Assembly (NCBI GenBank): GCA_029261895.1
Contig: JAJDAK010000017.1
Location: 13,572-77,571 of the forward strand
Direction of reading: 5' to 3'
Source of the DNA: Deltaproteobacteria bacterium
GTDB taxonomy: Bacteria; Myxococcota_A; UBA9160; SZUA-336
DNA: 64,000 bases
In this document: piece after piece, positions 26,015 through 44,923 of the stretch
How positions within the stretch are numbered: the stretch's first letter is position 1
Layout: every line of letters starts with the position of its first letter
Notes under the pieces: generated by a model
Databases searched by the model: none
Told to the model about the DNA's origin: nothing
Seen by the model: the letters and a program-made list of their open reading frames with translations, nothing else
Translations under genes and position numbers: made by a program

Positions 26015-27090
26015 TTGACACTGCGTACAACTACATATTCGAACGTAGCGGCGCTGCTTTCCGCAGTGCTTTTTTGCGTACCGGCGGCAAATGCCGTCGA
26101 GTACCGTTTCTATCATTCAGATCCACTCGGTTCGAATGTTGTCGTGACCGATCGCAGTGGGCAGGTAATACAGCGCACTGCGCATACACCGTATGGTGAG
26201 CTTCGCTCCGTCGTTGATGGATCGGGGCAATCGATCGTCGCTGAAGCGGATCAGGCGCGGCACCTCTTCACCGGCCAGGAGTACGAACCAGAGAGCGGTC
26301 TGCACTACTTCGGAGCCAGACACTACGACCCGTTCATCGGACGCTTCCTGTCGGTCGATCCACTCGTGCTCAGCGATCAGGGTCCCAAAGCCTTTGGTGA
26401 TGCACCAGGAAGCTTCAATACGCATGCTTATGCGTTCGGACGACCAACGGTATTCATCGATCCCACTGGTGAACAGGCCGTCGTGCCACCCGTTTGCGGT
26501 CCGCTCTGTGCCGTTCTAAGTGGTCTCTCTCTAGTCGTGGGCGGACTGTTGGCCAAAACGGTCCACCCGATATTCCTGATTTACCAGCTATTGGAGATGC
26601 CGGCTCGCCGTCCTCGCCTGCACCTTCGCCCACGCCCGACCGAACACCGGGCCCAGACTCGCTACCCGAACCAAGGCCTACTCACACACTCAGCTCCATT
26701 CTAATCCCATCGGGGACCGATGCGTTTCAACCGATGCAACGTGGGATTAAACGAGTCAGTGGTTCGGGACTTCGCGTCGACAGCGATATCGTATTTACGG
26801 GAGAGATGACGCTCGAAGGCGATAGGTTGGTCGTAAAAATTTTCAATCTCGGTGTCTTCCAAAAGAGCTCGGGTAACGTATTTAGGTTCATTCGTGGACT
26901 TGAAAAAGGCGCCCGTAGCCTCGGCGCGAAAGAGCTAACGATCAAGGGATTTGACGTTCAGAATGATTCATTCTTGAGAAGCACCGAGGCTCTTGCCAAG
27001 CGCTTTGGCTTCGACGTGATCGAAAATACTTCCGGCCAGATCTTGGAACGAACTCTCATCAACATGACGATCCAGAAAACGCTCAACTGA
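26015..27090 (+). pseudogene. Signal peptide + Rhs-associated core + variable C-terminal domain (mini-Rhs 1), frameshifted at ~26550
   Basis: ANA-VEYRFYHSDPLGS..TPYGE..FTGQEYE.ESGLHYFGARHYDP..GRFLSVDP..PTVFIDPTG; the C-terminus continues in ORF 26494-27090. Confidence 0.78.
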
Positions 27091-27313
27091 ACCTTTAAGC
27101 ATCCGCCATATTCATATGCGCTCCACCAAGACCGCCTGTCTTGCACGGGGCCTAGCCCAACGTGTGGCGGATCTTCATAACGCAGTAGTTTCACTCGAGC
27201 GGATGAAGCCGCGCAAGTTCAACGCAGACACTCAGGTTGCAACGCTGATTTAGAAGAAGTCGTTACAACGACGCTTCGCACTATCGTAAATCGTGCTCTT
27301 TCTGACAGGGCGC

Positions 27314-27814
27314 TCAGCGATAGTTGCCGAAGCTGAGCTCGATGCCCCAATCACCGGCGCGCAGGAAAGCCATGACCTCTTGCAGCGAGTCCCGGGAAGC
27401 ACTGGAAACGCGCAGCTGATCGCCTTGGATCGCCATCTGCACCTTCTTGAACTTCTCATTCTTGAAGGCTTTGACGATAATCTTTGCGGTGTCGCTCGAG
27501 ATCCCCTGCGAGAGCGTGATGGTGCGCTTCATGCGGCTCGGCCCAGAGGGCTCGTTCTCGGGAATCACCAGGTTCTTGAGGGGCACCTTGCGTTTGGTCA
27601 TCTTGTTTTTGAGCACGTCAAGTAGTGCATCCATGCGAAAGGCATCATCGGCTTCGAGCGCTATCGTGGCCTTTTCGCGATCCAGCTCGAGCTTACAATC
27701 GCTGCCCTTGAAGTCATAGCGCTGCGCAATTTCTTTCTTGGCCTGGTTGACCGCGTTGTCGACCTCTTGCAAATCGACCCCGGTCGTCACATCAAAGGAA
27801 AGCTGTTCTGCCAC
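27314..27814 (-). CDS. yajQ: YajQ family nucleotide/c-di-GMP-binding protein
   Basis: 'SFDV...VDLQEVDNAVNQAKKEI..RYDFKGS', 'IQGDQLRVS...RD.LQ', C-terminal 'F.NYR'. Confidence 0.95.
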   Translation of the reverse strand: MAEQLSFDVTTGVDLQEVDNAVNQAKKEIAQRYDFKGSDCKLELDREKATIALEADDAFRMDALLDVLKNKMTKRKVPLKNLVIPENEPSGPSRMKRTITLSQGISSDTAKIIVKAFKNEKFKKVQMAIQGDQLRVSSASRDSLQEVMAFLRAGDWGIELSFGNYR

Positions 27815-27968
27815 TGTGCTTAGCTCTTTTGCTTCATCAAAGGGTACGCTCCGTTCCGATGCCTGATGATAGCGTCATCTCCGCATTTTCAAACGCCCAC
27901 CATGTCCCGAGACCGGAGCACGAGCCCGAAAGTCACTTGATAGGAGCGACTAGTATATAAAAGGTGGT

Positions 27969-30900
27969 ATGAAGCCGACGCGTATTCGAGCCACGATCCT
28001 CTTCTCCGATCTCGTCGGCTACACCGCGCTGGCCGAAGAGCGCGGTCCCGAAGAGGCATTCCTCGTGCTGACGGGCTGCATCGCTGTATTGGATAGCGTG
28101 GCGCGTGCGCGTGGCGGTTCGGTGGACAAGTATTTTGGCGATGCCCTGATGGCGGTCTTCGGCTATCCGGTCCCCCAGGACCAACCCGCCTGGGCGGCGG
28201 TAGACGCGGCATTGGAAATGCGCGAGCGGGTGCGCGAATACAATGCTGAATTGGGACTCGCCACCGGTTTGGAGATTCACATCGGCATCAACACCGGTAA
28301 CGTAGTGAGCGGGGATCTCACGGGCCCAGTCATCCGTGAGTTTCACGTGCTCGGCGACGCGGTCAATGTTGCCGCCAGGCTCAAGGAACGCGCACCGCTG
28401 GGCGGCATATTCATCGGGCCGAACACGTACGCTGAAACCGCAATTCAGTTTCGCTTCCGTGATCAGGAGCAGCTCAAACTCAAGGGCAAGCAGGCGTCGG
28501 TCAACACGTATGAAGTACTGGGTCCGGCGAGCACGACCGAACTTGAAGGCATCATTCGACGCGCACGAATTCTGACCCATATGATCGGCCGCGCGGACGC
28601 GCTGGAGAAACTACGCGGCGCGGTCGCACGGCTCGAACAGGGTCGCGGCGGAATCGTACGCGTGAGCGGCGACACGGGCAGCGGCAAGTCGAGACTTCTG
28701 GCCGAGATCTGTGCCAGTCCCGAACTCAAGCGCTTTCGAACGCTCGATCTCCATCTAGGCGTTGCGAAACCCGAAGAGTTCGCGCTGCTTCGAGAACTCG
28801 CGCGCGCATTAAGTTCGAACGGGGATGCGCTGGAGCGCAACATAGAATCGCTGGTTCAGCCGGCCAAACAGCGCTTTTTCCGGCGCGGAGGTCGACGCGT
28901 TGCCAGCAGAACTGGTTTGCGCCGCGCGTTCACCGCGTTGGTATCACGAAGAGCCCACCAGGAACCGCTCATCATCGTGATCGACGACCTAGATCATGCC
29001 GACCCAAGTTCACTGGACGTGCTTAAGTCTGTATTTTCAGTGGCGGTCGAGTCCCCCGTGCTCTTCCTCCTCACCACCCGAGACGCAAAGATCGAAAGCA
29101 CCCGTGAATCAGAAAAATCTCCAAACGAGCACGGGGTCGAGATCGAGTTAGGGCCGTTATCGACGGAAGATGCGGAACGCCTCATCGATGCACTGGATAG
29201 CGATGGCACACTCAGCGCGGAAATAAGAGCGACCATCATAGAACGGGGCCAGGGAAACGCCAGCCGACTGACCATGGGTGTGTTTCTGGCGCCGGCGCTA
29301 CGCTCGGAACAAACACGCCTCGAACAGCAGGCCGAGCGCTCATCCGACGCTGAGCGGCGGCGTGCAACGATTCTCTTTGCGGACCTCAGTGGGTTTACTT
29401 CGCTGACGGAAGCCGCCCGCTTGGAAGACGCATATGAGATCGTAACCGGTGCACTGCATGTTTTGGACGAAACGGCCAAGCGCCACGGCGGCACCGTCGA
29501 CAAATACCTCGGAGACTGCGTGATGGTGCTCTTTGGCGTACCCCATGCTATCGAGGATGCGCCCAGAGCCGCAGTTAACAGCGCTATTGAAATGCGCCGA
29601 CGCATCGCGGAGTACAGCGCTGAACGCGGCGTCGCATTGGAGGTTCACTCGGGCATCCACACGGGCCTCGGAATCGCGGGTGAAATCAGCGGTCCGGTCA
29701 CATTGGAGTATGCGGTCATGGGCGAACCTGTGGCCGTCGCATCCAAACTCAAAGACATCGCGCACAGTGGCGAAATCTACGTGGGCGAAGAGACGCATCG
29801 GTTTACGCGGAATCGCTTCGAATACCGCGCCGTCGATCCCATCGAAGTTCGTGGCGCTTCCGAACCGGTCCGAACCTATGCCCTACTCTCGGATGAAGAA
29901 GAGCTCTTTCGCGATCGCGTTGACTCCGATCGTCTGCTTCATGCGAACCTCGTGGGTCGCGATCGAGAATTCGGAATTTTGTCGACCGCGATCGAACACT
30001 TGAAAAACGGTCAGGGTTCGTTTGTCTCACTCGTTGGCGAGGCGGGCCTGGGCAAGAGCCGGCTGCTCAAGGAAATACAGGAGCACGGCGAAACCCAATC
30101 CGTTAAATGGTTAGAAGGCCGCTCTTTATCCAACGGACAGACCATCAGCTTTCACCCGTTTGCAGACCTACTGCGCAGTTGGGTCGGAATCGACGACGAA
30201 GATGACGATCGGCAGGCGCGTCGCAAATTGGACCAAAGCTTGCGCCTAGCCCTCAGCGCCGACGCGGAAAGCGCCGCTCCCTTTGTGGCGTCGCTCATCG
30301 GTGTTCAACTTAGCCTACCCGAACAAGAGCGCATCGCGCGCATTCCTGGCGACGCGAAAGAAAAACTACTGCGGGGATCACTGACTCGGCTTTTCCGTTC
30401 TGTGAGTCAGGCGCAGCCGTTGATCCTCGTCTTCGACGATCTGCACTGGGCGGACCAGTCCTCGGTTGAACTTCTCGACTCGCTGTTACGACTCATCAAC
30501 GAAAGTCCTGTGCTCATTCTAGGTGTCTACCGACCTGGTTTTAAAGATACATCCGATCGAATTCGCAACACGGTCGCTACGCAGTTCGGTGATCGCCTGA
30601 TCGAGATCGAACTCGAACAATTGGATCGCGAGAGCGCACGCGCGATGATTCACGACCTCTTCCGTGGTGGTGACGTGCCGCATGAAACGCGCAATCGAAT
30701 CGAGGACAAGGCCCAGGGCAATCCCCTGTACATCGAAGAGGTCATTCGAGCCTTGCTTGAGACCGGGGCCATCGAAGTCGTGAACGGCTGCCTGCAGGCC
30801 AATGACAATATTCATCAAGTGGAGATCCCCGGCACGGTTCAAGAGGTTCTCATGGCGCGGATCGATCGCCTGGACCTCGAACGTAAGAAACTCCTGCAGC

Positions 30901-32606
30901 TGGCGGCGGTCGTTGGCCGTAGTTTTCACTTCGATGTATTGGCGCAGATCATCGATGACAAGGAACAGCTCGAGCAGGACTTGGCCAGCCTGGTTCGATC
31001 GCAGTTTCTGGTTGAATGGGATCGCCTGCAGGGCATTGAGTATGCGTTTCGTCATCCACTGATCCACGAGGTGACCTACGAGGGCATCCTCGAGCTGCGG
31101 CGGCGCGAAATCCACCTTCACGTGGCCGAGGCCATTGAACACCGACTGACGGCGAACCTGCCCGGCTACTACGGCATGCTGGCGTTTCATTTCAGCAAAG
31201 CCGGGGATGCCGAACGCGCCGAGACCTACCTTTTTCGCGCGGGCGATGAAGCTGCACGGGTCGCAGCTTCCAACGAAGCGCTGCACTTTTTCCGCGAGGC
31301 GTCGCAGCTCTACTTTGAAATGTACGGTGACCGCGCCGATTCCGGCAAACGAGCCGAGCTGGAACGCAAGATCGGCGAAGCGCTCTACAATCGGGGACAG
31401 CTGATCGAAGCTGCCGAACACTTCGACCTTGCGCTCGACGCCCTCGGTGAGTGGGTGCCCCGTAACATAGTGCTGATCGCGCTGCGCTTCGGCTTGAATA
31501 TTAGCGGGGTTCTTATGCGGCTCTACCTGTCCTCACAATTGGGTGGCGGCCGCAAAGCCGGCAATCAGGATCGTGAAATCATTTCACTCAACTTCGAACG
31601 CGCGGAAGCTCAAACCACAACCTCGCCGACACGTTTCCTCTTCGACAGCATGGCGACTCTAGCCAAGCTACAGACGGTCGATCCCAGTTCCGTGCCCGGC
31701 GCGGGTGGAATGTACGCCGGAGCCGTTGGCATATTCGCGTATGGTGGCGCAAGTTTTGGCATCAGCCGTCGCTTCCTAAACCTCGCTGCCCAACTCGTGG
31801 ATCCAGAGAATCATCACGAGTTCGTGCGTTTCCGTTTCATGAATTTTCTACACCATGTTTTAGAGGGAGACTGGTCGGAAGACCATGAAATTCCCGATGC
31901 CTTGCTCGACAAAAATCTCCAGTCGGGTGCGATTTGGACCGTCACGAATTACCTGGGTTTGGTCGCTGAGAAATACATCCGCCAAGGTAATTACGAGACC
32001 GTTCTCGAGCATCTCGAACGGATCGAGCAGATCTGGGACTTCTATCAGCACGATCTGGCGAAGACCAATAAATACTATCTGCCCATGTTGCTGCAGTTTG
32101 AACAGGAGCAATTCGAAGCAACCATCCGCGCGGCGCAACAGTATTACGACGAATGTCCCGAGGATCTGCTCCACGTGCTTTCGCTTTCTACTCAAGCCGC
32201 TGCACAGACCGAACTCGGCCGACTGGATGACGCCGAGGCTTCGCTGGAACGCTGCGAGAAGACCATCCGACGCTGCCGACCGGTTCCACCCTTTCACCTG
32301 AGTTCGTACCAACGGGCGCGATTTCAGTTGGATCTGGCGCATCTCGAGACCGCGACGGAATCCAGCGAACAATCCCGGTGGGCGCGGCGTACACGAGCCA
32401 GCGGCCGAGCCGCGCTCCGCGGTGCATCGTTCGTGGCCTGGCGACGTCCCCCGGTATATCGCTTGATGGCGCGTTATTACGCTGTCATGAGAAAAGAGGC
32501 TCGGGCGAAGAACTGGTGGGATAAAGCACTTCAAGCCTGTGAGCAGCTTGGAACAGACCCCGAACGCGACCGCATCGAGCGCGATCAAACGCGGACTCTT
32601 GCTTGA
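27969..32606 (+). CDS. Duplicated class III adenylate/guanylate cyclase-STAND NTPase protein with TPR-like C-terminus
   Basis: Two cyclase domains (FSDLVGYT/DKYFGD; FADLSGFT/DKYLGD); two Walker A (GDTGSGKS, GEAGLGKS) and two Walker B motifs. Confidence 0.9.
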   Translation: MKPTRIRATILFSDLVGYTALAEERGPEEAFLVLTGCIAVLDSVARARGGSVDKYFGDALMAVFGYPVPQDQPAWAAVDAALEMRERVREYNAELGLATGLEIHIGINTGNVVSGDLTGPVIREFHVLGDAVNVAARLKERAPLGGIFIGPNTYAETAIQFRFRDQEQLKLKGKQASVNTYEVLGPASTTELEGIIRRARILTHMIGRADALEKLRGAVARLEQGRGGIVRVSGDTGSGKSRLLAEICASPELKRFRTLDLHLGVAKPEEFALLRELARALSSNGDALERNIESLVQPAKQRFFRRGGRRVASRTGLRRAFTALVSRRAHQEPLIIVIDDLDHADPSSLDVLKSVFSVAVESPVLFLLTTRDAKIESTRESEKSPNEHGVEIELGPLSTEDAERLIDALDSDGTLSAEIRATIIERGQGNASRLTMGVFLAPALRSEQTRLEQQAERSSDAERRRATILFADLSGFTSLTEAARLEDAYEIVTGALHVLDETAKRHGGTVDKYLGDCVMVLFGVPHAIEDAPRAAVNSAIEMRRRIAEYSAERGVALEVHSGIHTGLGIAGEISGPVTLEYAVMGEPVAVASKLKDIAHSGEIYVGEETHRFTRNRFEYRAVDPIEVRGASEPVRTYALLSDEEELFRDRVDSDRLLHANLVGRDREFGILSTAIEHLKNGQGSFVSLVGEAGLGKSRLLKEIQEHGETQSVKWLEGRSLSNGQTISFHPFADLLRSWVGIDDEDDDRQARRKLDQSLRLALSADAESAAPFVASLIGVQLSLPEQERIARIPGDAKEKLLRGSLTRLFRSVSQAQPLILVFDDLHWADQSSVELLDSLLRLINESPVLILGVYRPGFKDTSDRIRNTVATQFGDRLIEIELEQLDRESARAMIHDLFRGGDVPHETRNRIEDKAQGNPLYIEEVIRALLETGAIEVVNGCLQANDNIHQVEIPGTVQEVLMARIDRLDLERKKLLQLAAVVGRSFHFDVLAQIIDDKEQLEQDLASLVRSQFLVEWDRLQGIEYAFRHPLIHEVTYEGILELRRREIHLHVAEAIEHRLTANLPGYYGMLAFHFSKAGDAERAETYLFRAGDEAARVAASNEALHFFREASQLYFEMYGDRADSGKRAELERKIGEALYNRGQLIEAAEHFDLALDALGEWVPRNIVLIALRFGLNISGVLMRLYLSSQLGGGRKAGNQDREIISLNFERAEAQTTTSPTRFLFDSMATLAKLQTVDPSSVPGAGGMYAGAVGIFAYGGASFGISRRFLNLAAQLVDPENHHEFVRFRFMNFLHHVLEGDWSEDHEIPDALLDKNLQSGAIWTVTNYLGLVAEKYIRQGNYETVLEHLERIEQIWDFYQHDLAKTNKYYLPMLLQFEQEQFEATIRAAQQYYDECPEDLLHVLSLSTQAAAQTELGRLDDAEASLERCEKTIRRCRPVPPFHLSSYQRARFQLDLAHLETATESSEQSRWARRTRASGRAALRGASFVAWRRPPVYRLMARYYAVMRKEARAKNWWDKALQACEQLGTDPERDRIERDQTRTLA

Positions 32607-32639
32607 CATCTATTCGCGTCAACCTCTAGAACGGTTGAC

Positions 32640-35600
32640 GTGATATCTTTCGTCGCTCGAGCTGTTCTGTGTTCGCTCGCCCTCTTGATCTCGCTGGAGG
32701 CAGAGGCCGGTTGCGACAATATTCCGAGTCGCACCGAGTGTTTCCAAGGTGGCGTGGGTTGTCTCAATCAACCCTATGCCGCGCCCGGCCAGATCGTTGA
32801 ACTTCGTGTGCGAACGGAAATCTGCGATGGAACGTCACTGGGGCTACGCGACACCAGCAGCGGGAATTGCATCGACCCAGACGACGTCCTCACCAGCGTC
32901 GTCTTTACCCCACCCGGTGGCGCAGTCAACGTCATCGTCCTCGCCACGAGCTGCTCGGGCGCGGCACTCAGCGAGACCCAGTCGTGGGCCACGACATTGG
33001 CAGCACAAGGCGGAACCGCTGTCTGCCGCGACAACGCGGATATCGCGATCAACGAAAAAGATGTGGGCACGGGGATCAGCGAATGCCGACTTAGTTTTGA
33101 ATTCCCCAATAGCGATGATCTCGTCACTGCAGCGTCGGATGAGCTCACGCTCGCGGGTCCGGCCAAGATCATCGTGAGTCCAAGTGCCTCACCGCTACCA
33201 CAGGAACTGGCATCGCAACGCTGCGCCGAAGCCGTCGGAACCGTGGCCTGCATCGATGAGTTTTTCGATGTGGATGGCTCGTGTCGCACGTCCGCCGATC
33301 GACAGAGCCAACGCTTTCCACATTTCACCGCGCTTCCCATCTTTAATGACTTTGCGGAAATGTGTTCCAGTGACGGCAACCCTCTTTCCCCTTGCGACGA
33401 CGGCGCCGACCCAGACTTTCGGTTTACGCTCGATATCGCAGGCAATGTGCTCGCACCCATCAACTGGGAAGGCGTGCTCTTCAAAGGCGCAACGCAGGGC
33501 TTTCCACCGCCGCAACTCATCGATGCCAGCACGACCATCGAGGCGTTTCTAGGAACGGGCGTTCCGATTCGGCTGCCGGCATTCTCCGGTCGCTCGTTTA
33601 CACCGCTCGGTTTACCACTCGCACCGGTCTTTGACCCCACGTTCAATCCTGATGATCCGAACTCGGCCAATTGGAACGGATCAACCGACGCGGTCGCCAC
33701 AGTGCTGCGTTTTGCGCGGCGCAGCCCTGAATTTTTGGAATGTTTCGATGCCGGTTCACCCGTGGGCACGCCCTGTGTGAGCGCCGACGGTTGCGAGTCG
33801 GGCCAGACCTGTGCGACGGCTGTCTGCTACCAAAACCGCAACGCCACGAATGAGCCGTGTAGCAATGACGCGGACTGCAGCGCGTTGGGTGGGACATGCG
33901 GTCCCGCACTCTTTGATCTTGCATTCCTGCGGAGTGGGGGTGGCCTCGGACCCGGTGTGATTCCGCGCGGCGCCTACGATGCAGGTACACAGTTCTTCGT
34001 GCCGCTCGAAGGTCTCTGTCAGTCCAGTGAGCTCAACTGCTTCGTACTCGACGAAACCTTGGAAGGCTTGCTGCTTAACGCCGATGGCGACGCCTTAGAT
34101 CGCGGCGCGTTGTTATTGCAAAAACGCAGCACCGGTGTGATTCAAAAGATCGGCAACGACTTTGGTGGAGCACCCGCGGACGCGCTGGCCGTTGCGCTGA
34201 TTCAACAGGGACGTTCCCAAGCACCCGTGGTTAAGGCAGAGCAGGAATGCGTGGCGTTCGCGATTCCAGAGCCCTGGGAAAACAGCTTCGATATCAACGG
34301 CAACGGCGACGTCTTCAATTCAATCCTACGCGTGCTCTGTCTCACCGAAAGCGGCGTGGCCGAGCAAACATCATTTGATTTCGCCATCGAAACCGACCCA
34401 CGCATCATTCAAAGTCCGCGTGGTATCAGTCAGACCGGAACCTCGGCCGATCCGATCGTTTTTAGCGACGGGCTGGTCTACTTCCTGGTCCCTGAAGCGG
34501 CCAATGCCAAACTGCTCGTACAGGATGTTCCGGACACGAACGCTGGCGGCCAGACCATCAACGAAACCCCCATCGCCTCCGGCGACGGAGACCGCATCGC
34601 GTTTCTCCGGCGCGGCGGCGGGCAGACCGCGGGCGCGTTTTTGATCGATCTCAGTAGCGGCCTCGGCGAACTCGTGAGCGTGGCCGACCGCGGCGACTGC
34701 AACGAAACGCCCGTCCCCCTACGCGGTCCCATTTCCGACTTGGCCTTGGCGGCAGGCGGCGAAGTGGTGGCGTTTTCGCAGACGCAGACATTCGGCTTCG
34801 ATGGACGGGCGAACGGTCAAGCGTTGGCAGACGGAACCGACGTGGGAAATGGTATTACGCTTTCGGTCGACGCTCCCGGCACCTTGGGCGCCGCGATCTT
34901 TGACACCGATCCAAGCGGTCCGAATCTGGGCATGGAAGACCCCGACTTACTCGTGGACCTGGGCAACGTGCTCATCTTGCAGAGCACGGACAACCCCGAT
35001 CAAACTCAGCCTGGGATCTTCGACACGCCGGACGATTCCCGCGTCGGCGGCTTGGTCGCCTTCGACTTCCCGGTCGGCGCGGAGCTCGACCGCATCGTGC
35101 TCGTCGACCTGGAATCAAGTAGCGCCGAACTGCGGCTGATCGATGGCAGCGGTCGCGTACGCAGCTACGACGTACCCAAGGGCTGGACCAAGGATGTCGT
35201 CGACGACGGCCCGGACGGATTCGACACACTCGATCTAACCTCGCTCAGTGATCAATCCGGCGAGGGCGGCAAGACCGCAACGGCCAGCGAAGACGCGGGC
35301 TTCGATGCAACCGACGTAGTACGCTTGGAGATCGTCCTCCACGGCTCCGGGGCGCTGTCGACCTTCTCACTGTTCTCGGACATGGGTCTACGCCGCGAGA
35401 TCTTTGCCCATGACACCGAAAACTGTCGCACTGAATTGATCTCCGTGAATAGCTCCGGAATTCCGGCCGACGCTTCGAGCGAGGAAGCTTCGCTTTCGGC
35501 CGACGGCCTGCTGGTGGCGTTCGCATCACTGGCCAGCAACCTAGACCCCACCGATACAAACGGAACCTGGGATGTCTTCCTACGCGACCGCAGCAATGCT

Positions 35601-37907
35601 ACGACGCTGCTGATGAGCCGCGATGAGGACGATCAGCCGCTGCCTGGCGAATCACGCAAGCCAAGCTTGTCCGCCGATGGACTCAGCCTAGCGTTCCAAC
35701 ACACTGCGCCAGCGGGTGTACCGGAAGTCTTCATACGCGACCTTGTAACCGGATTGGTCACGCGAATTGGCGAGGGTGAGGAACCTCTACTCTCGACCGA
35801 TGGCAGAATCCTGGCCTTCCTGCGTGATGGTCAGGTCTACGCGTATGACCGAGACTTTAATACTTTGGCGTTGTTGAGCGTCAACCCAGATGGAACTCCT
35901 GGTGCGTTTCCGGCCAGCCGCTTAAGCATTGGCAACGGCCGCGTAATTGGCTTTGAAACCCAGTCTGCTTTAGTACCGGAAGACACCGACACCGATGTCG
36001 ACAGCTACGTCGTCGACCGTGTCACGCGACTGATCAAGCAGGCCGCACCGGAAGAACCCAGCAGTGGCGCGCCCACACTGGACGAGTCGGGCAACCTCAT
36101 CGGCTTCGAGGTCACCGACGCCGGGGGCGGCAAGATCTTGGTGACGCGTGCACCCGACCCAAACGATTTGGCGGCAGACTTCTCGGGTGACGGTACATTG
36201 GATGACGTTGTACTCATGGTTCTCGACACGAATATTGAACCGGCCGTTCTCGATATCGTGGCCCAAGTCGATCAGGTGGCCGTCAGCGGTTTGGCTTCTG
36301 CCTTCACTTCCGGCCCCAATCGGCACGCCTTCGCGCGCTACTTCCCCTGCGGCAACATCTTTTGTCCCGCGACGGTCCATGACCTCGGTATCAACAGCCC
36401 GGGTGGCATCGTCATTTCGGATCAGCTCGTCTGCGCGATTGCGGCGGACTCGACGTTGCACTGTGGCGAACTCGGCGCAAGCGGCGCGTTGCAAAAGGTG
36501 CTGGACGGCGGGAACCCTGTGGCTGTGGATCAACTGGCGGTTGTCGACGACATGGTCGTGCTCACGCTGCCGCCCGACATCAACGGCGTGCGCTTCCTAC
36601 GCATCGGCTTTCTCAATCCCATCACGGGCGCGATCGACCTATTGCCTTTTGCTGAGGCAGCACGACTCTTTGTTGCTGGCGAGAACTTGGTTGCATTCGA
36701 TCAATGTGAAACGGACGTAGCCGCTGACCTCGACCTGGACGGCGACCAGAACGAATGCGTGTTGAAGTTCTTCGATCGGCGCAGCGGCTTGATCGAAAAC
36801 ACCTTCCAGGCTGTGATCCCGTGCGATTCCGAAGCTTGCGATGCGCGCTTCCCCTGGCGCGTCTTCCCCGACAGCGTGCGCTACATCACTCACGAGTGTG
36901 ATTTATCCACGTGTCCGGACTGCGACGAAGATGGGATTTGCCCCGGCGGCAACGCCGTCACCGCGCTTTGCGATCTAAACAACGACGGCGATTGCAGCGA
37001 TCAGATCGTTCAACAGACATCGTCCATTTTGACTTCGAATCTGCTCGCCAGCGTCACACCGCAGACCGGCTTGGGCGGTGGCGAGTTGGGCGATGGATCC
37101 CTTTCTTTTGGTTCGGTCTTCGAGACCAGCGCGGGCGAATGCGAGAATCAACCAGAGATCGCCTGCAATGAGGCCGCGGATTGTCCCGGCAGCCAAGCCT
37201 GCATCGGCTTTGCGCCACTGCTCTTAGGCTTACCCGATACCGATGGAGATGGCTTCTTCGACTCGGACGATAACTGCGAGTTTCAGCCAAATAGAGATCA
37301 AGCCGACTCCGATGGCGATGGTACCGGCGACCTCTGTGATCGCTTCACCTGCGGCGACGGCGTGTTGCAGGAAGACGAGAGCTGCGATGCCGGCAGCGCC
37401 AACGGCAGCGAAGCCAGCGACTGCAGCGATGGCTGCACGCCCGCGGTTGTGGCCTCGCATCGACTATCGCGCAAACGTGAGGCCGTTCGTATCAGCCGAC
37501 GCCGCAAACACGCGGCGATCGAGATTCTAGGGTCAGAACTACTGAACCTGACGCTCGTGCCCAAAGCAGGCTTAATCCCTGAACTGCGAGCGATCGACAC
37601 CGACTCGATTCGCATCCACGCCGTAGCACCGGGCGCGAGCTGCCCCAGCAGCGGCGGCTCGACCCTTCTTCACGATCTTAACCGCGAGCGTAAATACAAG
37701 CGGCACCTACGCCGCATGAAGGGCTTTGACAAGAGCATTCGGAAGCTACGCATCCACTTCACCGTCGCGGACGCGGGCATCGCACGAACCACAGCTCTCG
37801 GTCACGACGTGGTGGAACTCTGCGTAACGGGTCGCCTCTCGGGCATCGCAGGCGAAACCGGGATCGAACGCTTTGAGTCGCGCCTCCCCGTGGAGATTCG
37901 CCGCTGA
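32640..37907 (+). CDS. Very large secreted Cys-rich protein with TolB/PD40-like propeller, TSP3 and myxobacterial disulfide repeats
   Basis: Signal peptide; 'SLSADG..VAFASLASNL..DTNGTWDVFLRDR'; DxDGDG..DNC; 'CGDGV....E.CD.G..N..CSDGC'. Confidence 0.82.
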   Translation: MISFVARAVLCSLALLISLEAEAGCDNIPSRTECFQGGVGCLNQPYAAPGQIVELRVRTEICDGTSLGLRDTSSGNCIDPDDVLTSVVFTPPGGAVNVIVLATSCSGAALSETQSWATTLAAQGGTAVCRDNADIAINEKDVGTGISECRLSFEFPNSDDLVTAASDELTLAGPAKIIVSPSASPLPQELASQRCAEAVGTVACIDEFFDVDGSCRTSADRQSQRFPHFTALPIFNDFAEMCSSDGNPLSPCDDGADPDFRFTLDIAGNVLAPINWEGVLFKGATQGFPPPQLIDASTTIEAFLGTGVPIRLPAFSGRSFTPLGLPLAPVFDPTFNPDDPNSANWNGSTDAVATVLRFARRSPEFLECFDAGSPVGTPCVSADGCESGQTCATAVCYQNRNATNEPCSNDADCSALGGTCGPALFDLAFLRSGGGLGPGVIPRGAYDAGTQFFVPLEGLCQSSELNCFVLDETLEGLLLNADGDALDRGALLLQKRSTGVIQKIGNDFGGAPADALAVALIQQGRSQAPVVKAEQECVAFAIPEPWENSFDINGNGDVFNSILRVLCLTESGVAEQTSFDFAIETDPRIIQSPRGISQTGTSADPIVFSDGLVYFLVPEAANAKLLVQDVPDTNAGGQTINETPIASGDGDRIAFLRRGGGQTAGAFLIDLSSGLGELVSVADRGDCNETPVPLRGPISDLALAAGGEVVAFSQTQTFGFDGRANGQALADGTDVGNGITLSVDAPGTLGAAIFDTDPSGPNLGMEDPDLLVDLGNVLILQSTDNPDQTQPGIFDTPDDSRVGGLVAFDFPVGAELDRIVLVDLESSSAELRLIDGSGRVRSYDVPKGWTKDVVDDGPDGFDTLDLTSLSDQSGEGGKTATASEDAGFDATDVVRLEIVLHGSGALSTFSLFSDMGLRREIFAHDTENCRTELISVNSSGIPADASSEEASLSADGLLVAFASLASNLDPTDTNGTWDVFLRDRSNATTLLMSRDEDDQPLPGESRKPSLSADGLSLAFQHTAPAGVPEVFIRDLVTGLVTRIGEGEEPLLSTDGRILAFLRDGQVYAYDRDFNTLALLSVNPDGTPGAFPASRLSIGNGRVIGFETQSALVPEDTDTDVDSYVVDRVTRLIKQAAPEEPSSGAPTLDESGNLIGFEVTDAGGGKILVTRAPDPNDLAADFSGDGTLDDVVLMVLDTNIEPAVLDIVAQVDQVAVSGLASAFTSGPNRHAFARYFPCGNIFCPATVHDLGINSPGGIVISDQLVCAIAADSTLHCGELGASGALQKVLDGGNPVAVDQLAVVDDMVVLTLPPDINGVRFLRIGFLNPITGAIDLLPFAEAARLFVAGENLVAFDQCETDVAADLDLDGDQNECVLKFFDRRSGLIENTFQAVIPCDSEACDARFPWRVFPDSVRYITHECDLSTCPDCDEDGICPGGNAVTALCDLNNDGDCSDQIVQQTSSILTSNLLASVTPQTGLGGGELGDGSLSFGSVFETSAGECENQPEIACNEAADCPGSQACIGFAPLLLGLPDTDGDGFFDSDDNCEFQPNRDQADSDGDGTGDLCDRFTCGDGVLQEDESCDAGSANGSEASDCSDGCTPAVVASHRLSRKREAVRISRRRKHAAIEILGSELLNLTLVPKAGLIPELRAIDTDSIRIHAVAPGASCPSSGGSTLLHDLNRERKYKRHLRRMKGFDKSIRKLRIHFTVADAGIARTTALGHDVVELCVTGRLSGIAGETGIERFESRLPVEIRR

Positions 37908-37939
37908 TCCATGCGCTAATTCGACTCGCTTTCGTCTGC

Positions 37940-39472
37940 GTGTCGGCCGTGCTCTTTGGACTCGCGTTCCCACCCCATAGCTTTCACTATCTGGTCTGGA
38001 TCTGTTTGGTTCCGTTGTTCGTCGCGCTGCGCCAGGCCCGATGGAGAACCCTACTGCTCGCCGCTTGGCTCTGGCCGACGTTGGCCGCGTACGTGATCGG
38101 CGATTGGTTGCCACCGGCCATTGCAACCTACTTCGAGCAACCGAGCTGGGTCGGCTTTGCGTTCTTCTTTTTCGTAACCACGACCATGGCTTTTCCCTAC
38201 TACGGATTCGCGTTCTGGGCCTACGGTGCCGCCGAAAAACGATTCCGTGGGGCTCTGCCATGGATTGCCGCCTGTGCTTGGGTGGCCTGCGAGTTGGGTC
38301 GGGGTCGCTTGTTCACGGGAACACCTTTTTTCATTGGAAATCCCTGGGGACTCATCGGTTATACGCTGGTCGACGTCGTTCCTCTGCTACAGATCGCAAG
38401 TCTCGGCGGCATCTATGCGGTCAGTTTTTGCATCGTAGCCGCGAACGCGACTATCGCCGAATGCCTGCGTCGCAAGCGCTCGCTGCTTGCGCTGGCCCTT
38501 GGCGCGGTACCCGTCGCCGCCAGCTTTGGATTTGGATATTACGAATTAGCGCACGCGGACCCATCGACAGACTCGGCAACCTCGCTGATTGTGGTGCAAG
38601 CGAACCTGGGTGCGGAATCTGGCTGGCGCCGTGAAAACTACGGGGAGAACCTAGAAGCGTACTTGAAACAGACCCATCTGGCTTTGGAAAATGCGAACGC
38701 TTCACTCGTCATCTGGCCCGAATCCGCCATGACGTTCTTCCCCGCCGACGAGCCACAGTATCTCCAAGCCATCGCCAGTGTGCTGAAAACTCGCGAGACT
38801 GAACTCCTGGCAGGAGCGCCCTACGAATTGCGCGGAGATTTCTTCAACAGCATGTACCTTTTGTCTTCCGCAGCTGAGATCAAAGCGCGCTACGACAAGG
38901 AATACCTGGTCCCCTTTGCCGAATACATCCCGTTTGCCGAATTCGATCTGATCCGACGGCGCTTTGACCGTGTTCGTGTGTTTTCTTCGGGTGACCCGAG
39001 CGACCCGTTACCCACGATGATCGGTCGCGCGGGAATCGTCACGTGCAATGAGTCGATGCTTCCCGAGGTCGTGGCCGACCGGGTCACGCGCGGTGCCGAA
39101 TTCTTGATTAATCCATCCAATGACACCTGGATTCCGCATAAGAAGTTCGCTGAACAACAATTCGACATCGCTACGATCCGTGCAGTGGAACAGCGTCGTT
39201 ACCTGGTGCGGGCGTCCACCACCGGCCCTTCCGCGATCGTCGACCCTTGGGGCCGCGTCCTGAAACGAACGCAGACGTTTACCCAAGAAGTCCTCCGGGG
39301 TGAAGTTCGAGCGCTCAACACCACAACGTTCTACAACCGGTACGGCGACGCTTTTGCGATCGGTTGTTTCCTCTGTACACTCGCGGCTCTGCTGATGCCG
39401 GTCAGGCGTGATGCTTCCCCGTTACCAGAAATGCGAGTCCCGCCACCAAGCATCCAATCCCGCTCGCTGTGA
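37940..39472 (+). CDS. lnt: Apolipoprotein N-acyltransferase
   Basis: TM N-terminus; nitrilase triad 'WPES', 'YDKEYLVPFAEY', 'TCNES'; 'NDTW', 'RAVEQRR', 'TGPSAIVDP.G'. Confidence 0.9.
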   Translation: MSAVLFGLAFPPHSFHYLVWICLVPLFVALRQARWRTLLLAAWLWPTLAAYVIGDWLPPAIATYFEQPSWVGFAFFFFVTTTMAFPYYGFAFWAYGAAEKRFRGALPWIAACAWVACELGRGRLFTGTPFFIGNPWGLIGYTLVDVVPLLQIASLGGIYAVSFCIVAANATIAECLRRKRSLLALALGAVPVAASFGFGYYELAHADPSTDSATSLIVVQANLGAESGWRRENYGENLEAYLKQTHLALENANASLVIWPESAMTFFPADEPQYLQAIASVLKTRETELLAGAPYELRGDFFNSMYLLSSAAEIKARYDKEYLVPFAEYIPFAEFDLIRRRFDRVRVFSSGDPSDPLPTMIGRAGIVTCNESMLPEVVADRVTRGAEFLINPSNDTWIPHKKFAEQQFDIATIRAVEQRRYLVRASTTGPSAIVDPWGRVLKRTQTFTQEVLRGEVRALNTTTFYNRYGDAFAIGCFLCTLAALLMPVRRDASPLPEMRVPPPSIQSRSL

Positions 39473-39785
39473 GTAAATTTTGAGCCATGCAGCCCGGACC
39501 ACACTCGGGAACCGCCAGCGAAAAGAACGTGACCGGTAACATCGTCAAGCATCCCCAAAGCGGTCCACGCAGGTACCAGCGCCGCGGCCACACACTCACA
39601 CCAACGACGAATCCGATCATCATTCGCGCGGAGTAGAACGCCCAAACTGCAATCGATCCATGTATGTAGTAGAGATTGAACTTCTCCGGAATCGGACCGT
39701 GTAAGAGCACGGGTATCCAACCCAGCGCAACCCCAAGCATGACACAGACCAAAACGTACGGCGCTTTCACGGGTACGAACTTCAT
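39402..39785 (-). CDS. Small membrane protein
   Basis: Four hydrophobic segments; ATGA overlap with the cfa-like gene. Confidence 0.65.
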   Translation of the reverse strand: MKFVPVKAPYVLVCVMLGVALGWIPVLLHGPIPEKFNLYYIHGSIAVWAFYSARMMIGFVVGVSVWPRRWYLRGPLWGCLTMLPVTFFSLAVPECGPGCMAQNLLTASGIGCLVAGLAFLVTGKHHA

Positions 39786-40897: not shown

Positions 40898-41085
40898 AAC
40901 CGTGCCGAGCTTAACACGAGCAAAGCTCCGCAATATTCTCGAGCGAGTCAGGACTGTACCGCGGCGAGAAATGCCCTGTTCTCTCGCGGTTGTCGCGATC
41001 CGTTTCCACCTAGTTGCGTGCCCATAAACGCTCGCCGATTGAGAGACTTTGCCTCGTGTGCGATGCGCATAGTACACTCCTCTTG

Positions 41086-42078
41086 ATGTACTACCTGCTC
41101 CTCTTGGGTGTTCTCGTATTTGCCGCTGCCAGCTCGGTACAAGCCGCGGAATACCGCTTCTATCATCCGGACCCGCTGGGTTCGAACGTCGTAGTAACCG
41201 ACCGAAGCGGGCGAGTTGTGCAGCGCACAGTGAGTACACCGTACGGTGAAATGCGAAGTGTACTCGATGGCGAGGGCAACTCGATCGAACCCGGGGCCAA
41301 CAGTCCACGGCATCTCTTTACCGATCAAGAGCACGATCCCGAGAGCGGGCTCCATTATTTTAATGCGCGTTACTACGACTCGTTTGTCGGGAAGTTCCTC
41401 TCCGTGGACCCCGATTTAACGGATGCGTTTCCGGGCGTCAGCTTCTCGATGCTCACCTCAGAACCTGGGAATTTCAACACCCACGCCTACGTGAGAAATC
41501 GACCCACCCACCTGATCGACCCCACGGGTACAAACGCGATCCGGCTCGGCGAGAGTCTCGACGATGATCCTGGTATTGTGGAGTTCAGCGGCTTCTTCAG
41601 CCCCGAGGATCTCGAGCGCCTCAATGGGCCAGCGGACGAAGGCGAAGGTCGCGACGGCGACCGTCCTGAATCTGGCGTTCTGTTACCCGGAAGCACGGGG
41701 CCGCAAGAACCAACGGGCGAAGGCGACGGGCCCGACATCATTGGCGAGGGCAGTGGTGAAATTATTGAACGCCAGGTGCCTTGGAATGGAATTGAATGGC
41801 TCTCCGAGAACTTCCCTGTGATGTTCCCCCCGAGCACGGTGTACATCGTTGGTGGGATCGAGCACCGGAGTCTCCCCGTGCAGGCACCCCCACCCTCACC
41901 GTCGCCGCCACCCCCGGACGGACCCATCACCGTGATTGAGAACCCGCGATTCAAGGATCTTGAGGAGCGGCCCACTGCCGACACGCTCGAGGGTGTCCGA
42001 AAGCTTCGAACTGGCAAAAGAGGATTTGTCAGGACTCGGAAAGACCCTCGGACCCCGAGACAAGAGTTACGCCAATAG
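41086..42078 (+). CDS. Signal peptide + Rhs-associated core + variable acidic/Pro-rich C-terminus (mini-Rhs 2)
   Basis: VQA-AEYRFYHPDPLGS..TPYGE..FTDQEHDPESGLHYFNARYYD..KFLSVDP..PTHLIDPTG; TACACT-7-ATG start. Confidence 0.85.
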   Translation: MYYLLLLGVLVFAAASSVQAAEYRFYHPDPLGSNVVVTDRSGRVVQRTVSTPYGEMRSVLDGEGNSIEPGANSPRHLFTDQEHDPESGLHYFNARYYDSFVGKFLSVDPDLTDAFPGVSFSMLTSEPGNFNTHAYVRNRPTHLIDPTGTNAIRLGESLDDDPGIVEFSGFFSPEDLERLNGPADEGEGRDGDRPESGVLLPGSTGPQEPTGEGDGPDIIGEGSGEIIERQVPWNGIEWLSENFPVMFPPSTVYIVGGIEHRSLPVQAPPPSPSPPPPDGPITVIENPRFKDLEERPTADTLEGVRKLRTGKRGFVRTRKDPRTPRQELRQ

Positions 42079-42114
42079 AGTCGGCGAGGCAGCGGAGAGT
42101 CTGCGGCAAGCTCT

Positions 42115-43644
42115 CTACGGGAAACTGCCTCCGCTGTAGGTGATCTTACAGCCGTAGAAGCGCAGCTCGTTGAACGGTGCGCCGGTGTCGGTGTCGAAGA
42201 ACACCCATAGGAAGTACTGGTAGGCGTTCGTATCCACGACCTCGCGGCCCAAGGTCATGGTGATGTCGGAAATCGTATTGACGTTGGTGCTCTGGTGCAC
42301 GATATCCGTGCCGACGAACGCAATCGACTCGTTGCTGGTCGAGGTATACTCACGTCGATACAGCGTGACGTCGAGGTTCAGGTTCACCCCGCCGCCCGCG
42401 TTGTCGTACCAGTAACAACGGAGCGCTTCGATCGTCGAGTCGTCTGGCAGATCCACCGGTGCCGTAAGCGATATCGCCCATGGGGAGCTGCCGCCCTGCA
42501 TGAAGCCGAACCCGGTACTGTAGTACCACTCCTCGCCGCTCGAGGCGTGTGACGCCGAAAACTCGGCTGCGGGCACGGGTAGATAGCGGTTGCTGCCGGA
42601 GGTCAGCGTAAGTGGTCCACCGGCGATGACTTCGCCAGGCATGAAAACGTCGTCGGCAGAAGAGTCACCGAGCTCCATGATCAAGTTGGCGCCGGCGAAG
42701 CGCACGGTGTTGTTGGCGTCGCCATCGGAAATATTGGTGGTGGTGACGGTGGCTGGGCCGATCGTCATGCTATCTTCCACGACCAGCGAACTCCCATCTT
42801 CAATCGTTAGCGTGCTCGCAGTGAAGCTGTCGTCCGCGTTCGAACGCAGGAAACCAATAGCGTGTACGCCGTCGAGCATGTCCGCGATCAGTCCGGAGCC
42901 CGCTCCGTCGTTGTCGAGCACGATTCCGAACACGTCAGCGGACTGTGCAAATGCGCTGGAGTCGAGTCCATCCAGAAAGTCCGCGTCGAGCAGCGAAGTG
43001 TCTCCATCCACGAGCAGTAGCAGCGCGAGCACCTCGGAATCCCGCGCGATGCCGGAAGGAATCTGACCGTCGCTCGCCTGATCGGTCAACTCGGCGAAGC
43101 TCATGGTCTTGTCGTGGTGAGCGTTTGGATCGGCCGCGTGCCCAAGCAGTTGAGCCTGAGTCGCCAAGCCGGTCTGCGCAGCGGAAATGACCCCCGCCAG
43201 GTCCTCGCCCTCGAGCGCGGCTGCATTCACGCAGACCTGGGACTGAAACGAGTACGCCACACTGGTGTACTGCTGGCGCGGTACCAGCGTCTCGCTGTCG
43301 ATCCCGATCTCGAGCCAACGATTTGCACCCAGAAAAACCAGCACGTTGAATGGGCCCGACGTTACGTCCCCTAATCCGACTTTCACATCGAACACGCCGT
43401 CGATCACGGGAACGTTCAGGTGAACTTCTTCGTAAAGCAGATTGCCGGGAGCGACCGAGTTGGGATCGTTGTAGATCCGCAGCGTCACATCGACGGTCGC
43501 GTTCAGCGGATTGCCGTTCGGATCCAGCAGCAGCCCCTGGTAGTTCGAGAGATCAGGAACATCGGCAAGGGTCTGCCCTGCGAAAAGCGGCCCAGCAACC
43601 AGCGCCGCCAGCAAGAGCACCTCAAGCGATCGAATCCCGCGCAT
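42115..43644 (-). CDS. Secreted fibre-like/surface protein with DADxLDG repeats
   Basis: Signal peptide; 'VP..SNYQGLLLD..G.P..RIY..EEVH..V.V.DG.F.V..G' N-domain; DADFLDGLDS and ADMLDGVH repeats. Confidence 0.8.
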   Translation of the reverse strand: MRGIRSLEVLLLAALVAGPLFAGQTLADVPDLSNYQGLLLDPNGNPLNATVDVTLRIYNDPNSVAPGNLLYEEVHLNVPVIDGVFDVKVGLGDVTSGPFNVLVFLGANRWLEIGIDSETLVPRQQYTSVAYSFQSQVCVNAAALEGEDLAGVISAAQTGLATQAQLLGHAADPNAHHDKTMSFAELTDQASDGQIPSGIARDSEVLALLLLVDGDTSLLDADFLDGLDSSAFAQSADVFGIVLDNDGAGSGLIADMLDGVHAIGFLRSNADDSFTASTLTIEDGSSLVVEDSMTIGPATVTTTNISDGDANNTVRFAGANLIMELGDSSADDVFMPGEVIAGGPLTLTSGSNRYLPVPAAEFSASHASSGEEWYYSTGFGFMQGGSSPWAISLTAPVDLPDDSTIEALRCYWYDNAGGGVNLNLDVTLYRREYTSTSNESIAFVGTDIVHQSTNVNTISDITMTLGREVVDTNAYQYFLWVFFDTDTGAPFNELRFYGCKITYSGGSFP

Positions 43645-43864
43645 CCCGTCGCTATCATATGCGAATCAGCAGGCGTTGTGGGGGCCTAGCTAATTCAGGC
43701 GGTTACGTGCTCGGCTTGCTGCTACCGCAGCTCCTTACCGCTGAGTGGCCCCTGGCGCGGCTGAGTCGGTACCCATGAACTGATAATTGCTGAGAAACCG
43801 CCGCCTGGGTCGAGTGGTACACTGGTATTGCTCGGGGTAAGGATTGGGCGTGTGCGGAGATCGG

Positions 43865-44923
43865 ATGACATCGAGGAAGCGAGTTGTGGTCAGCCTGCTG
43901 CTAGCGTCGGGTCTGTATGCGAGCTTGCCGGCTTCCGCGGTCGAGTACCGCTTCTACCACCCGGATCCACTCGGGTCGAGTGTGGTCGTGACCGATCGCA
44001 GCGGCAAGGTGATTCAGCGTACGGTTACTACTCCGTACGGCGAGGTAACAGCACGGGTCGATGCGACCGGTCAATCGCTAGAACCGAGCGCGAACGCTCC
44101 GCGGCACCTGTTTACCGGCCAGGAGCACGACGCCGAGTCGAATCTCCACTACTACGGCGCGCGTCACTACGATCCATTCGCGGGGCGCTTCCTAAGTCAG
44201 GATCCGGTGCTCTTCAGCGGCGCTGGGCGCGGGCTGCCCAATGGCTATGCCTACGTTGACAACCGCCCAACCACGATGGTCGACCCTGACGGTCGCTTTC
44301 CCCTTGCACGCCGTCCGCTCACTCGAAGCTGGCCCGAACACAGTGAGCCTACGCAAGACGAGATATTCAAGGAATTTCATGAGAGGATGAAGGACGACCC
44401 GGTCGGCGAATTCGGTTTTGTTTTGGGAGCTACCGGTGGCCTCAACCGTGTTGGGGGAGCTGTCGCTAAAGCCGGAAGTAACGTCCTTCAGAAGCTCTGG
44501 AAACGCTGGTCTAAGCCTAAGGCAAACGCGACGCCGAAAATCGTTGACGATATTGCGGATATCGCCCCCTTCGAGCTTGATTTCAAGCAGCTAACGCCCC
44601 TAGAAGGGGACGTTCTTAACGTGCACGCAGCTCTCACTCCGAAGAGACATATCAGTCGTGTAGCGAACCCGAAGTTTGCCAAGAGTGCGATCGAAGATGT
44701 CGCTAAGGCGACGAGTATCATGAAAAGTAAAAGTTTCGAGTTGGTGATCCCAAGGCCCTCCCCGGTTGCTAGGGCTCAGTTCGAGGCAGCCATCCAAGTG
44801 AATCAAGCCGGAGAGAACATCATCACCGTACGCACGTTGGGGGGTGTAACGAACTTTCTTACGGAAATCTCAGAGCGCGAAATTTTTATCACGGGACCGG
44901 CCATCCCGCTGCGCCCCAAATAG
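43865..44923 (+). CDS. Signal peptide + Rhs-associated core + variable C-terminal domain (mini-Rhs 3)
   Basis: ASA-VEYRFYHPDPLGS..TPYGE..FTGQEHDAESNLHYYGARHYDP..GRFLSQDP..NRPTTMVDPDG; GGAG RBS. Confidence 0.85.
   Translation: MTSRKRVVVSLLLASGLYASLPASAVEYRFYHPDPLGSSVVVTDRSGKVIQRTVTTPYGEVTARVDATGQSLEPSANAPRHLFTGQEHDAESNLHYYGARHYDPFAGRFLSQDPVLFSGAGRGLPNGYAYVDNRPTTMVDPDGRFPLARRPLTRSWPEHSEPTQDEIFKEFHERMKDDPVGEFGFVLGATGGLNRVGGAVAKAGSNVLQKLWKRWSKPKANATPKIVDDIADIAPFELDFKQLTPLEGDVLNVHAALTPKRHISRVANPKFAKSAIEDVAKATSIMKSKSFELVIPRPSPVARAQFEAAIQVNQAGENIITVRTLGGVTNFLTEISEREIFITGPAIPLRPK

Follow-up and report, generated by a model that had tools for sequence, protein, structure and literature searches.

A 64,000-nucleotide stretch of DNA from a Deltaproteobacteria bacterium (GCA_029261895.1, contig JAJDAK010000017.1, positions 13,572 to 77,571, forward strand; the whole stretch is hereafter the window) carries three short genes, here called mini-Rhs genes or minis, which join a signal-like leader directly to an Rhs-associated core and a C-terminal tail. 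Comparison of their sequences indicates that they are probably dispersed cartridges, three of a family of about 25, of a split Rhs system of the TcB/TcC type, in which shell and cartridges would be exported separately through Sec and assemble in trans. A cartridge would comprise a Sec signal peptide, the last ~125 residues of the Rhs cocoon and a variable toxin of ~170–230 amino acids (aa), and the body of the cage would be made separately as a 1790-aa protein with its own signal peptide, ending exactly where the cartridge starts. This points to cages that can draw their load from a set of interchangeable toxin cartridges, each exported on its own. The evidence comprises the architecture of the genes, the size of the family, selection on the core, a colinear fission, operon linkage in two genomes and parallels in three metagenome loci, from which we infer docking, encapsulation, cleavage and export beyond the periplasm towards a target.

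Architecture and age of the mini-Rhs family

All three window genes lie on the + strand (open reading frames (ORFs) at 26015, 41014/41086 and 43844/43865), and in each of them a hydrophobic leader runs directly into the motif (V/A)EYRFYHxDPLGS, as an earlier note on this DNA had reported, followed by the Rhs core and the tail. The features are as follows.

26015..26704, + strand: mini-Rhs gene 1, first frame (TTG start; TIGR03696 match of 65 bits)
26015-26095, + strand: leader of gene 1, ending ANA
26096-26470, + strand: Rhs core of gene 1 (profile match at C9:39667-40041)
26494..27090, + strand: second frame of gene 1, remainder of the C-terminal domain, with similarity to homologue P0025
41086..42078, + strand: mini-Rhs gene 2 (ATG at 41086, leader ending VQA; TIGR03696 match of 57.3 bits)
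41146-41529, + strand: Rhs core of gene 2 (profile match)
43865..44923, + strand: mini-Rhs gene 3 (leader beginning MTSRKR and ending ASA; TIGR03696 match of 76.2 bits)
43865-43939, + strand: leader of gene 3, ending ASA
43940-44293, + strand: Rhs core of gene 3 (profile match)

The leader/core junctions read ANA followed by VEYRFYHSDPLGS in gene 1, VQA followed by AEYRFYHPDPLGS in gene 2 and ASA followed by VEYRFYHPDPLGS in gene 3. A search with TIGR03696 (Rhs_assc_core, NCBIfam) recovered the claimed core in all three genes, which score 65.0, 57.3 and 76.2 bits where the curated cut-off is 32.5 bits, and a Pfam scan of the same genes at E<=0.01 gave no match, including none to RHS_repeat. 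The core spans ~118–128 residues, ends at NRPTxxxDPxG and carries both aspartate motifs, FLSxDP and DPxG. The window genes encode about 230–355 aa and database gene calls of the family 313–375 aa; the start of gene 2 is placed at ATG 41086 here versus GTG 41056 in the database gene call.

The three unrelated C-termini of ~180–210 aa described in the earlier note hold for genes 2 and 3, whose tails of 180 and 202 residues past DPxG have no relative elsewhere in the same genome, but not for gene 1, whose first frame stops at 26704, just 77 residues past DPxG, with the rest out of frame. The frame at 26494-27090 matches the C-terminal end of P0025, an intact homologue of 345 aa, at 40% identity (E 7e-15), and because the same letters recur without gaps in contigs from three runs of one study (two of which are possibly the source of this DNA), gene 1 is, judged from its reading frames, probably a frame-shifted copy relative to intact homologues. 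Neither Pfam nor NCBIfam holds a family matching the window tails; for the tail of gene 3 an Atlas look-up gave scores of 0.85–0.88 (<0.9) with polymorphic-toxin domains as nearest clusters, which is a weak lead.

What had been described as a family of three genes numbers about 25 paralogues in this genome (G000), a metagenome-derived assembly of 4.07 Mb in 100 contigs that is 96% complete. TIGR03696 has 29 matches there, five in long frames (1875–3477 aa) and 24 in frames of 61–413 aa, namely the three window genes and 21 others, and a scan for the motif YRFYHxDxLGS found 25 short frames, among them two cut at contig ends, one 96-aa remnant and window gene 1. Every one of the 25 has a start codon and a hydrophobic leader. 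Position -1 is a small residue (A, S or G) in all 25 and position -3 is A, V, T or S in 24, so that by a heuristic reading (n-h-c leader, small residues at -3 and -1) the leaders have the properties of Sec and signal peptidase I substrates, in agreement with the signal peptides proposed previously. The first mature residue is A, V, L or Q and is always followed by EYRFYH. Alignment of the copies is good as far as DPxG and breaks down entirely after it; the tail past this point measures 167–230 aa in 20 of 23 copies and 146–206 aa in fused homologues, and this narrow range fits a volume limit inside a cage.

Tandem minis occur on contigs C1 (four), C95 (three) and C45 (two), and C36 carries five dispersed copies. 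Among the 25 copies no common upstream motif was found, the best 8-mer occurring in four. TATAAT- or TAAGAT-like boxes lie ~7–12 bases before the likely ATG at C98:4046, C36:18738, C75:22200, C36:33125 and C46:2997, and their nearness to the ATG hints at very short or absent 5' leaders in several minis.

One might suspect errors of assembly or annotation, or the decaying remains of long rhs genes that have broken up, in a metagenome assembly of 100 contigs where contig ends truncate two copies and another is frame-shifted. This explanation is very improbable and largely refuted: a stop codon lies 25–121 residues before the motif, the likely start gives a leader of about 20–40 residues, and no YD-repeat coding sequence was found upstream of the copies. 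The same architecture also recurs in an independent genome and in metagenome contigs, and the window stretch is identical in the contigs of three runs.

Sequence divergence points in the same direction. In a comparison of 23 cores (253 pairs), median nucleotide identity is 63% (range 57–82%), and synonymous differences are saturated, the median proportions of synonymous (pS) and non-synonymous (pN) differences being 0.75 and 0.25. The median ratio of non-synonymous to synonymous rates (dN/dS) is 0.16 in the 103 pairs with defined dS. Saturated synonymous sites together with this ratio argue that the minis are old and have been kept by selection on the protein, and are not fragments. An alignment of 19 paralogous cores has 40 invariant columns, which include the two DP motifs to which the earlier note had drawn attention; D78, D88-P89 and D115-P116-G118 are invariant and correspond to the autoprotease motifs RxYDPxxGRFxxxDP ... 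DPxG, the activity being putative.

We also considered that the minis are silent orphan rhs C-terminal cassettes, a reservoir recombining through the core into full-length rhs genes, with leaders that are incidental. Decayed copies exist (C1:92365-92729 and window gene 1), as would fit such a reservoir, and displaced C-terminal cassettes keeping part of the core are a classic feature of Rhs loci and the theme of PMC3482391. Against it, a start codon and signal-like leader are fused at the same residue in 25 of 25 copies, and the copies are not behind full-length rhs genes, the array on C1 lying behind a coreless one. Core DNA identity of 57–82% between copies places them too far apart to serve mainly as a recombination handle, at the protein level their cores are 31–40% identical to those of the genome's five fused Rhs genes, which leaves too little similarity for homologous recombination, and the dN/dS ratio shows selection on the protein. 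We regard a silent reservoir as improbable. The dedicated architecture argued for in the earlier note, as opposed to mere 3' ends of long rhs genes, is borne out by a leader/core junction common to 25 copies, by purifying selection on the cores and by recurrence in other assemblies, including full-length short homologues on long contigs of another genome.

A coreless shell gene and its operon

An RHS_repeat (Pfam) scan of the genome found five fused Rhs frames, one frame on contig C22 and one 1800-aa frame on C1, which sits just upstream of the C1 mini array. The cluster on C1 is a tightly packed run of genes on one strand, several of which overlap by a few bases.

C1:80818-86190, same strand as the minis: coreless shell, 1790 aa, leader MKWLF...AMA
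C1:86190-89183 (locus L042, 8191-11184), between shell and minis: three secreted proteins of 648, 166 and 185 aa, all ending ...GYFK
C1:89125, 90240 and 91283, same strand: minis of the C1 array, with stop/start overlaps of 4 bases
C1:92365-92729, in the C1 array: decayed fourth mini, a 96-aa frame followed by a core fragment with two in-frame TGA codons

The 1790-aa shell has SpvB, FG-GAP, TcdB_toxin_midN and RHS_repeat/YD matches and ends ...HVFLGNRRMATILRDN; TIGR03696 has no match in it. The description of the minis as shell-less is thus accurate for the polypeptide but not for the system, in which a coreless cocoon stands in one operon with four minis. The decayed member of this array suggests birth-and-death turnover of cartridges.

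Shell and mini together are colinear with fused homologues. By blastp, residues 1–1788 of the 1790-aa shell align to residues 14–1769 of the fused 2094-aa protein P0108 with 41% identity, and the minis align to its residues 1780–1908. The same colinearity is seen in the fused proteins P0100, P0109, P0111 and P0134 (fused homologues measure 2066–2166 aa), which run on from the equivalent of the shell end through a short linker into YRFYHPD..., and the 1790 aa of the shell plus about 330 aa of a mature mini equal the length of the fused homologues. This end-to-end alignment places the split exactly at the shell/core junction; read from the alignments, it is a gene fission in which the second half gained a new leader. 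A word-indexed search with the last 500 residues of the shell returned one close relative, the fused P0108, by a method that could not count coreless shells.

The small GYFK proteins of the operon gave no match in Pfam, NCBIfam or PDB sequences. The AlphaFold2 (AF2) model of the 166-aa protein is a confident jelly-roll (predicted local distance difference test (pLDDT) 81.7, from 9 sequences), and its best match among solved structures is to the tip domains of the Bdellovibrio Bd2133 fibre (E 2e-4, template modelling scores 0.54/0.62), with further matches to C1q/TNF-like heads and carbohydrate-binding modules; on the basis of this model it is a candidate binding module. As a separate observation, the 509-aa ORF between window genes 2 and 3 (42115-43644, - strand) has an N-terminus that weakly matches Bdello_MAT_N (36.6 bits, cut-off 60), an NCBIfam family of mosaic adhesive trimer fibres. 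Taken with the likeness of the accessory jelly-roll to a Bdellovibrio fibre tip, this match raises the possibility that fibre-type adhesins are a theme here.

The family is narrowly distributed among sequenced relatives. It is absent from every one of 40 related genomes (24 of the same family), the best match there, at 108 bits, lying inside a 2288-aa fused frame, and at E<=1e-25 it occurs in two of 401 genomes sampled across the phylum, the present one and one from the same class and another family. This second genome, reached through locus L050, has 17 short-frame matches to the mini profile and one contig-end fragment, together with one fused 2281-aa copy and coreless-shell pieces at contig ends. 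Its contig C5 keeps the order of C1: a shell end, proteins of 963, 167 and 176 aa and two minis. The shell ends ...RRMATILRDGL and then a stop, at the same place as on C1; the 963-aa protein begins on the shell stop, and all three intervening proteins (L080 577-4519) end GYFK. Small genes ending GYF[KR] also stand beside the fused copy of this genome. On contig C44 of genome G041 (L076, 4303 bp), a shell C-terminal end at 5-568 is followed ~460 bp on by a new shell N-terminus at 1031-4303, an arrangement that could reflect a repeat contig that is collapsed or chimeric, or else a tandem pair of shells.

Protein libraries give a wider picture. Searched against 1.84 billion proteins, the core profile returned 43 representatives at E<=1e-30; among the best 150 matches, at least 12 proteins from outside this genome carry a hydrophobic leader that runs straight into EY(R/H)F(Y/H)H, and in roughly twenty more distant short proteins a leader is seen by eye to abut the core. 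Proteins of this short signal-core-toxin layout come from many lineages; one is a 327-aa protein of Luteibacter sp. Sphag1AF (P0028).

Among 73 metagenome loci, 50 were inspected, the other 23 mostly matching the second half of the core alone. Leader-core short frames occur in four of the 50 (L087, L089, L091 and L092, of which L091 repeats part of L092), and in all three with enough flank a coreless RHS-repeat ORF lies on the same strand as the mini.

L087, same strand: 1798-aa ORF with DUF6531, RHS and HYR, then a mini, then an Imm26 gene (E 2.7e-19)
L089, same strand: 1391-aa ORF with DUF6531, RHS and Big_3_5, then a mini, then a 153-aa ORF
L092, same strand: 786-aa RHS ORF ending ...YAYVQGRLVGISTKTSP, with a leader-core ORF directly after it and two more minis upstream

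These shells, from other lineages, are of a different type from the C1 shell and are parallels, not orthologues. The separately encoded shell that the earlier note had suggested as a docking partner is therefore strongly backed by gene context: an operon in two genomes, colinearity with fused homologues and three metagenome loci.

Proposed assembly, cargo and competing explanations

Tail domains were recognised in three paralogues as a Scabin-like ADP-ribosyltransferase, a glutamine deamidase (Gln_amidase) and a Peptidase_M91. By family assignment these are toxin types that act inside cells, and they would need a delivery device more than plain secretion.

We posit the following order of assembly. 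Shell and cartridge would both cross the inner membrane unfolded, via Sec, after which the unfolded tail of the cartridge, the toxin, would enter the still-open end of the shell in the periplasm. The strands of the core would then complete the spiral and seal the cocoon, the aspartate pair would cut after DPxG and the toxin would be freed inside. One shell could in this way be armed with any of many toxins. The fuller version of this model, in which an open Sec-exported shell takes any of ~25 cartridges post-translationally in the periplasm, closes and frees the toxin inside, and in which the jelly-roll proteins may aim it at prey or eukaryotes, thereby explaining the missing immunity genes, is tentative, and we rate it at somewhat below even chances.

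The lack of obvious immunity genes, remarked on in the earlier note, holds in this genome, where none of 16 scanned ORFs directly downstream of minis matches an immunity family (known families only) and five copies are directly followed by another mini. Behind gene 2 there is no space for a downstream gene, as had been claimed, since its stop (42078) lies 37 bp from that of the convergent 509-aa ORF. One related metagenomic mini, that of L087, has the Imm26 gene immediately behind it. A 123-aa hydrophobic ORF at 45107-45478 (+ strand of the window) follows gene 3 after 184 bp; with neither a family nor a genomic paralogue, it is not assignable as an immunity gene. Speculatively, the lack of immunity genes would fit non-kin targets (prey or eukaryotes) or protection by export before folding.

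Several observations weigh against a split system with cartridges assembling in trans. A single coreless shell was detected for about 25 cartridges in this 100-contig, 96% complete assembly, the one further YD frame, on C22, running off its contig. The three window genes are remote from the shell and have unrelated neighbours, and the five fused Rhs genes of the genome carry their own cores. The YD proteins of L087 and L089 extend into HYR or Ig-like domains and do not stop at the junction, which makes them looser parallels. The TcA partner (PF18276, TcA_TcB_BD) was not found in this genome, but the same family was silent in all 14 control genomes, which makes this negative uninformative. Lastly, we know of no demonstration that a cocoon is loaded with its toxin in trans, and solved cocoons have the toxin in the same chain.

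Some of these points would be accounted for if the minis were secreted pro-toxins that act without a shell, the core serving as a pro-domain that cleaves itself, or as a carrier, and either keeping the toxin inactive or steering it to a route of export or uptake, and the link to the shell reflecting common descent or co-regulation. The dispersal of most minis, all three window genes included, with their own starts and promoter-like boxes fits this explanation, as do the ratio of 25 cartridges to one detected shell, the invariance of both aspartate motifs and the occurrence of short signal-core-toxin proteins in many lineages, the Luteibacter protein among them. It leaves unexplained why the break falls exactly at the shell/core junction, why the operon is kept in two genomes and why a coreless YD ORF stands beside each of the three metagenomic minis with enough flank. 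Solved structures, moreover, show this region built into the cocoon wall, and an AF2 model of the core alone reached a mean pLDDT of 51 from a 19-sequence alignment, a low-confidence result that was too poor for a fold search and counts weakly against this explanation. We consider shell-independent pro-toxins unlikely, at roughly one chance in a small handful, and prefer cartridges that join a separately exported shell.

Elsewhere in the window, the + strand ORF at 27969-32606 encodes 1545 aa with an N-terminal adenylate/guanylate cyclase domain followed by two STAND/AAA_16-type nucleoside triphosphatase regions, and is unrelated to the minis. The next, at 32640-37907 (+), encodes 1755 aa with a PD40 repeat match and a weak match to the thrombospondin-type repeats of the MYXO-CTERM protein MtsC; it is followed by Lnt (37940-39472).

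Relation to known Rhs and Tc systems

The conserved C-terminal region of Rhs proteins spirals into the cocoon, seals one end and is the aspartyl autoprotease in Tc toxins and RhsA (PMC8765631). When run on solved structures, the core profile falls on this region, at residues 2085–2181 of TcdB2-TccC3 (4o9x), 558–643 of TccC2, 594–669 of YenC2, 1298–1397 of Tse15, 1185–1270 of RhsA (7q97) and 2040–2143 of a teneurin-like protein (9ifo).

Among the closest known systems is the BC cocoon of Tc toxins (TcdB2-TccC3, 4O9X; YenB-YenC2, 4IGL). Like it, the C1 shell has a TcB-type SpvB, an FG-GAP propeller and TcdB_toxin_midN, then YD repeats, and the profile of the mini core falls on the final ~100 residues of TccC3, TccC2 and YenC2. 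Tc cocoons likewise consist of two polypeptides, and one TcB can be served by several TcC paralogues that differ in their toxins. Their break, in contrast, falls in mid-cocoon, with ~680 shell residues of TcC joined to core and toxin (PMC7861908), whereas in the minis it falls at the shell/core junction, the toxin piece has no YD repeats and both pieces have Sec leaders. TcC proteins measure 851–1050 aa in 97% of cases (PMC7861908), and the minis, at 313–375 aa (about 230–355 aa in the window), lie well outside the 850–1050 aa expected of a TcC subunit.

Type VI secretion system Rhs effectors (RhsA, 7Q97; Tse15, 8UY4; TseI) resemble the proposed system in their C-terminal seal with an aspartyl autoprotease and in cleaved fragments that stay together non-covalently. 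In TseI, cleavage takes place after L1433 with D1407 and D1429 as the catalytic pair, and separately expressed Rhs and C-terminal fragments pull each other down (PMC7170923). Unlike the minis, these effectors have PAAR/VgrG-linked N-termini, no Sec leader, cytoplasmic assembly, cleavage within one chain and adjacent immunity genes. Compared with canonical Rhs polymorphic toxins, the minis lack a YD-repeat shell in the same chain but have the variable tail past DPxG, and the adjacent immunity gene of the canonical type was seen behind none of the 16 scanned.

Orphan rhs cassettes of Enterobacteria are also short ORFs with part of the core and then a new toxin tip. They have no translation start or leader of their own, lie behind a full rhs gene and its immunity gene and match the core of that gene at high DNA identity; the minis differ in having leaders, in their position and in their DNA divergence. 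The Luteibacter protein P0028 shares the layout of signal-like leader, core and variable tail at about 330 aa, but has 35% identity over the core and the automatic name 'RHS repeat-associated core domain-containing protein'. The present finding explains the class of short database entries that bear just this name.

Sec-exported SpvB-propeller-RHS toxins form the 'TcdB/TcaC' trafficking class in Table 1 of Zhang et al. 2012 (PMC3482391). The fused signal-SpvB-propeller-RHS toxins P0108, P0100, P0109, P0111 and P0134 are direct homologues that align end to end with shell plus mini; unlike the system of G000, they are single chains, whereas there two genes each have a leader and the toxin half is present in ~25 copies. 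In the excerpts of the full-text literature that were covered (supplements and subscription journals being outside the scope), there is no description of an Rhs split between shell and core or of signal-core-toxin genes.

In every Rhs, Tc or teneurin-like cocoon studied to our knowledge, one chain carries the toxin, the seal and no less than half of the shell, and encapsulation has therefore been assumed to occur as the chain folds. A natural break at the shell/seal junction, with a Sec leader on each piece and a ~25-fold toxin piece, implies a cocoon that can be closed and loaded by a separate protein, and such a split system makes the order of entry, sealing and cleavage testable with two purified components. 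It would also be a second route to diversify an Rhs arsenal, beside C-terminal displacement by recombination, and, if true, would let a single cage support a combinatorial arsenal of toxins. Already known are the Rhs core, cocoons like TcB/TcC and the SpvB-propeller-RHS toxins exported by Sec; what appears from these comparisons to be new is the split between shell and seal and the cartridges that go with it.

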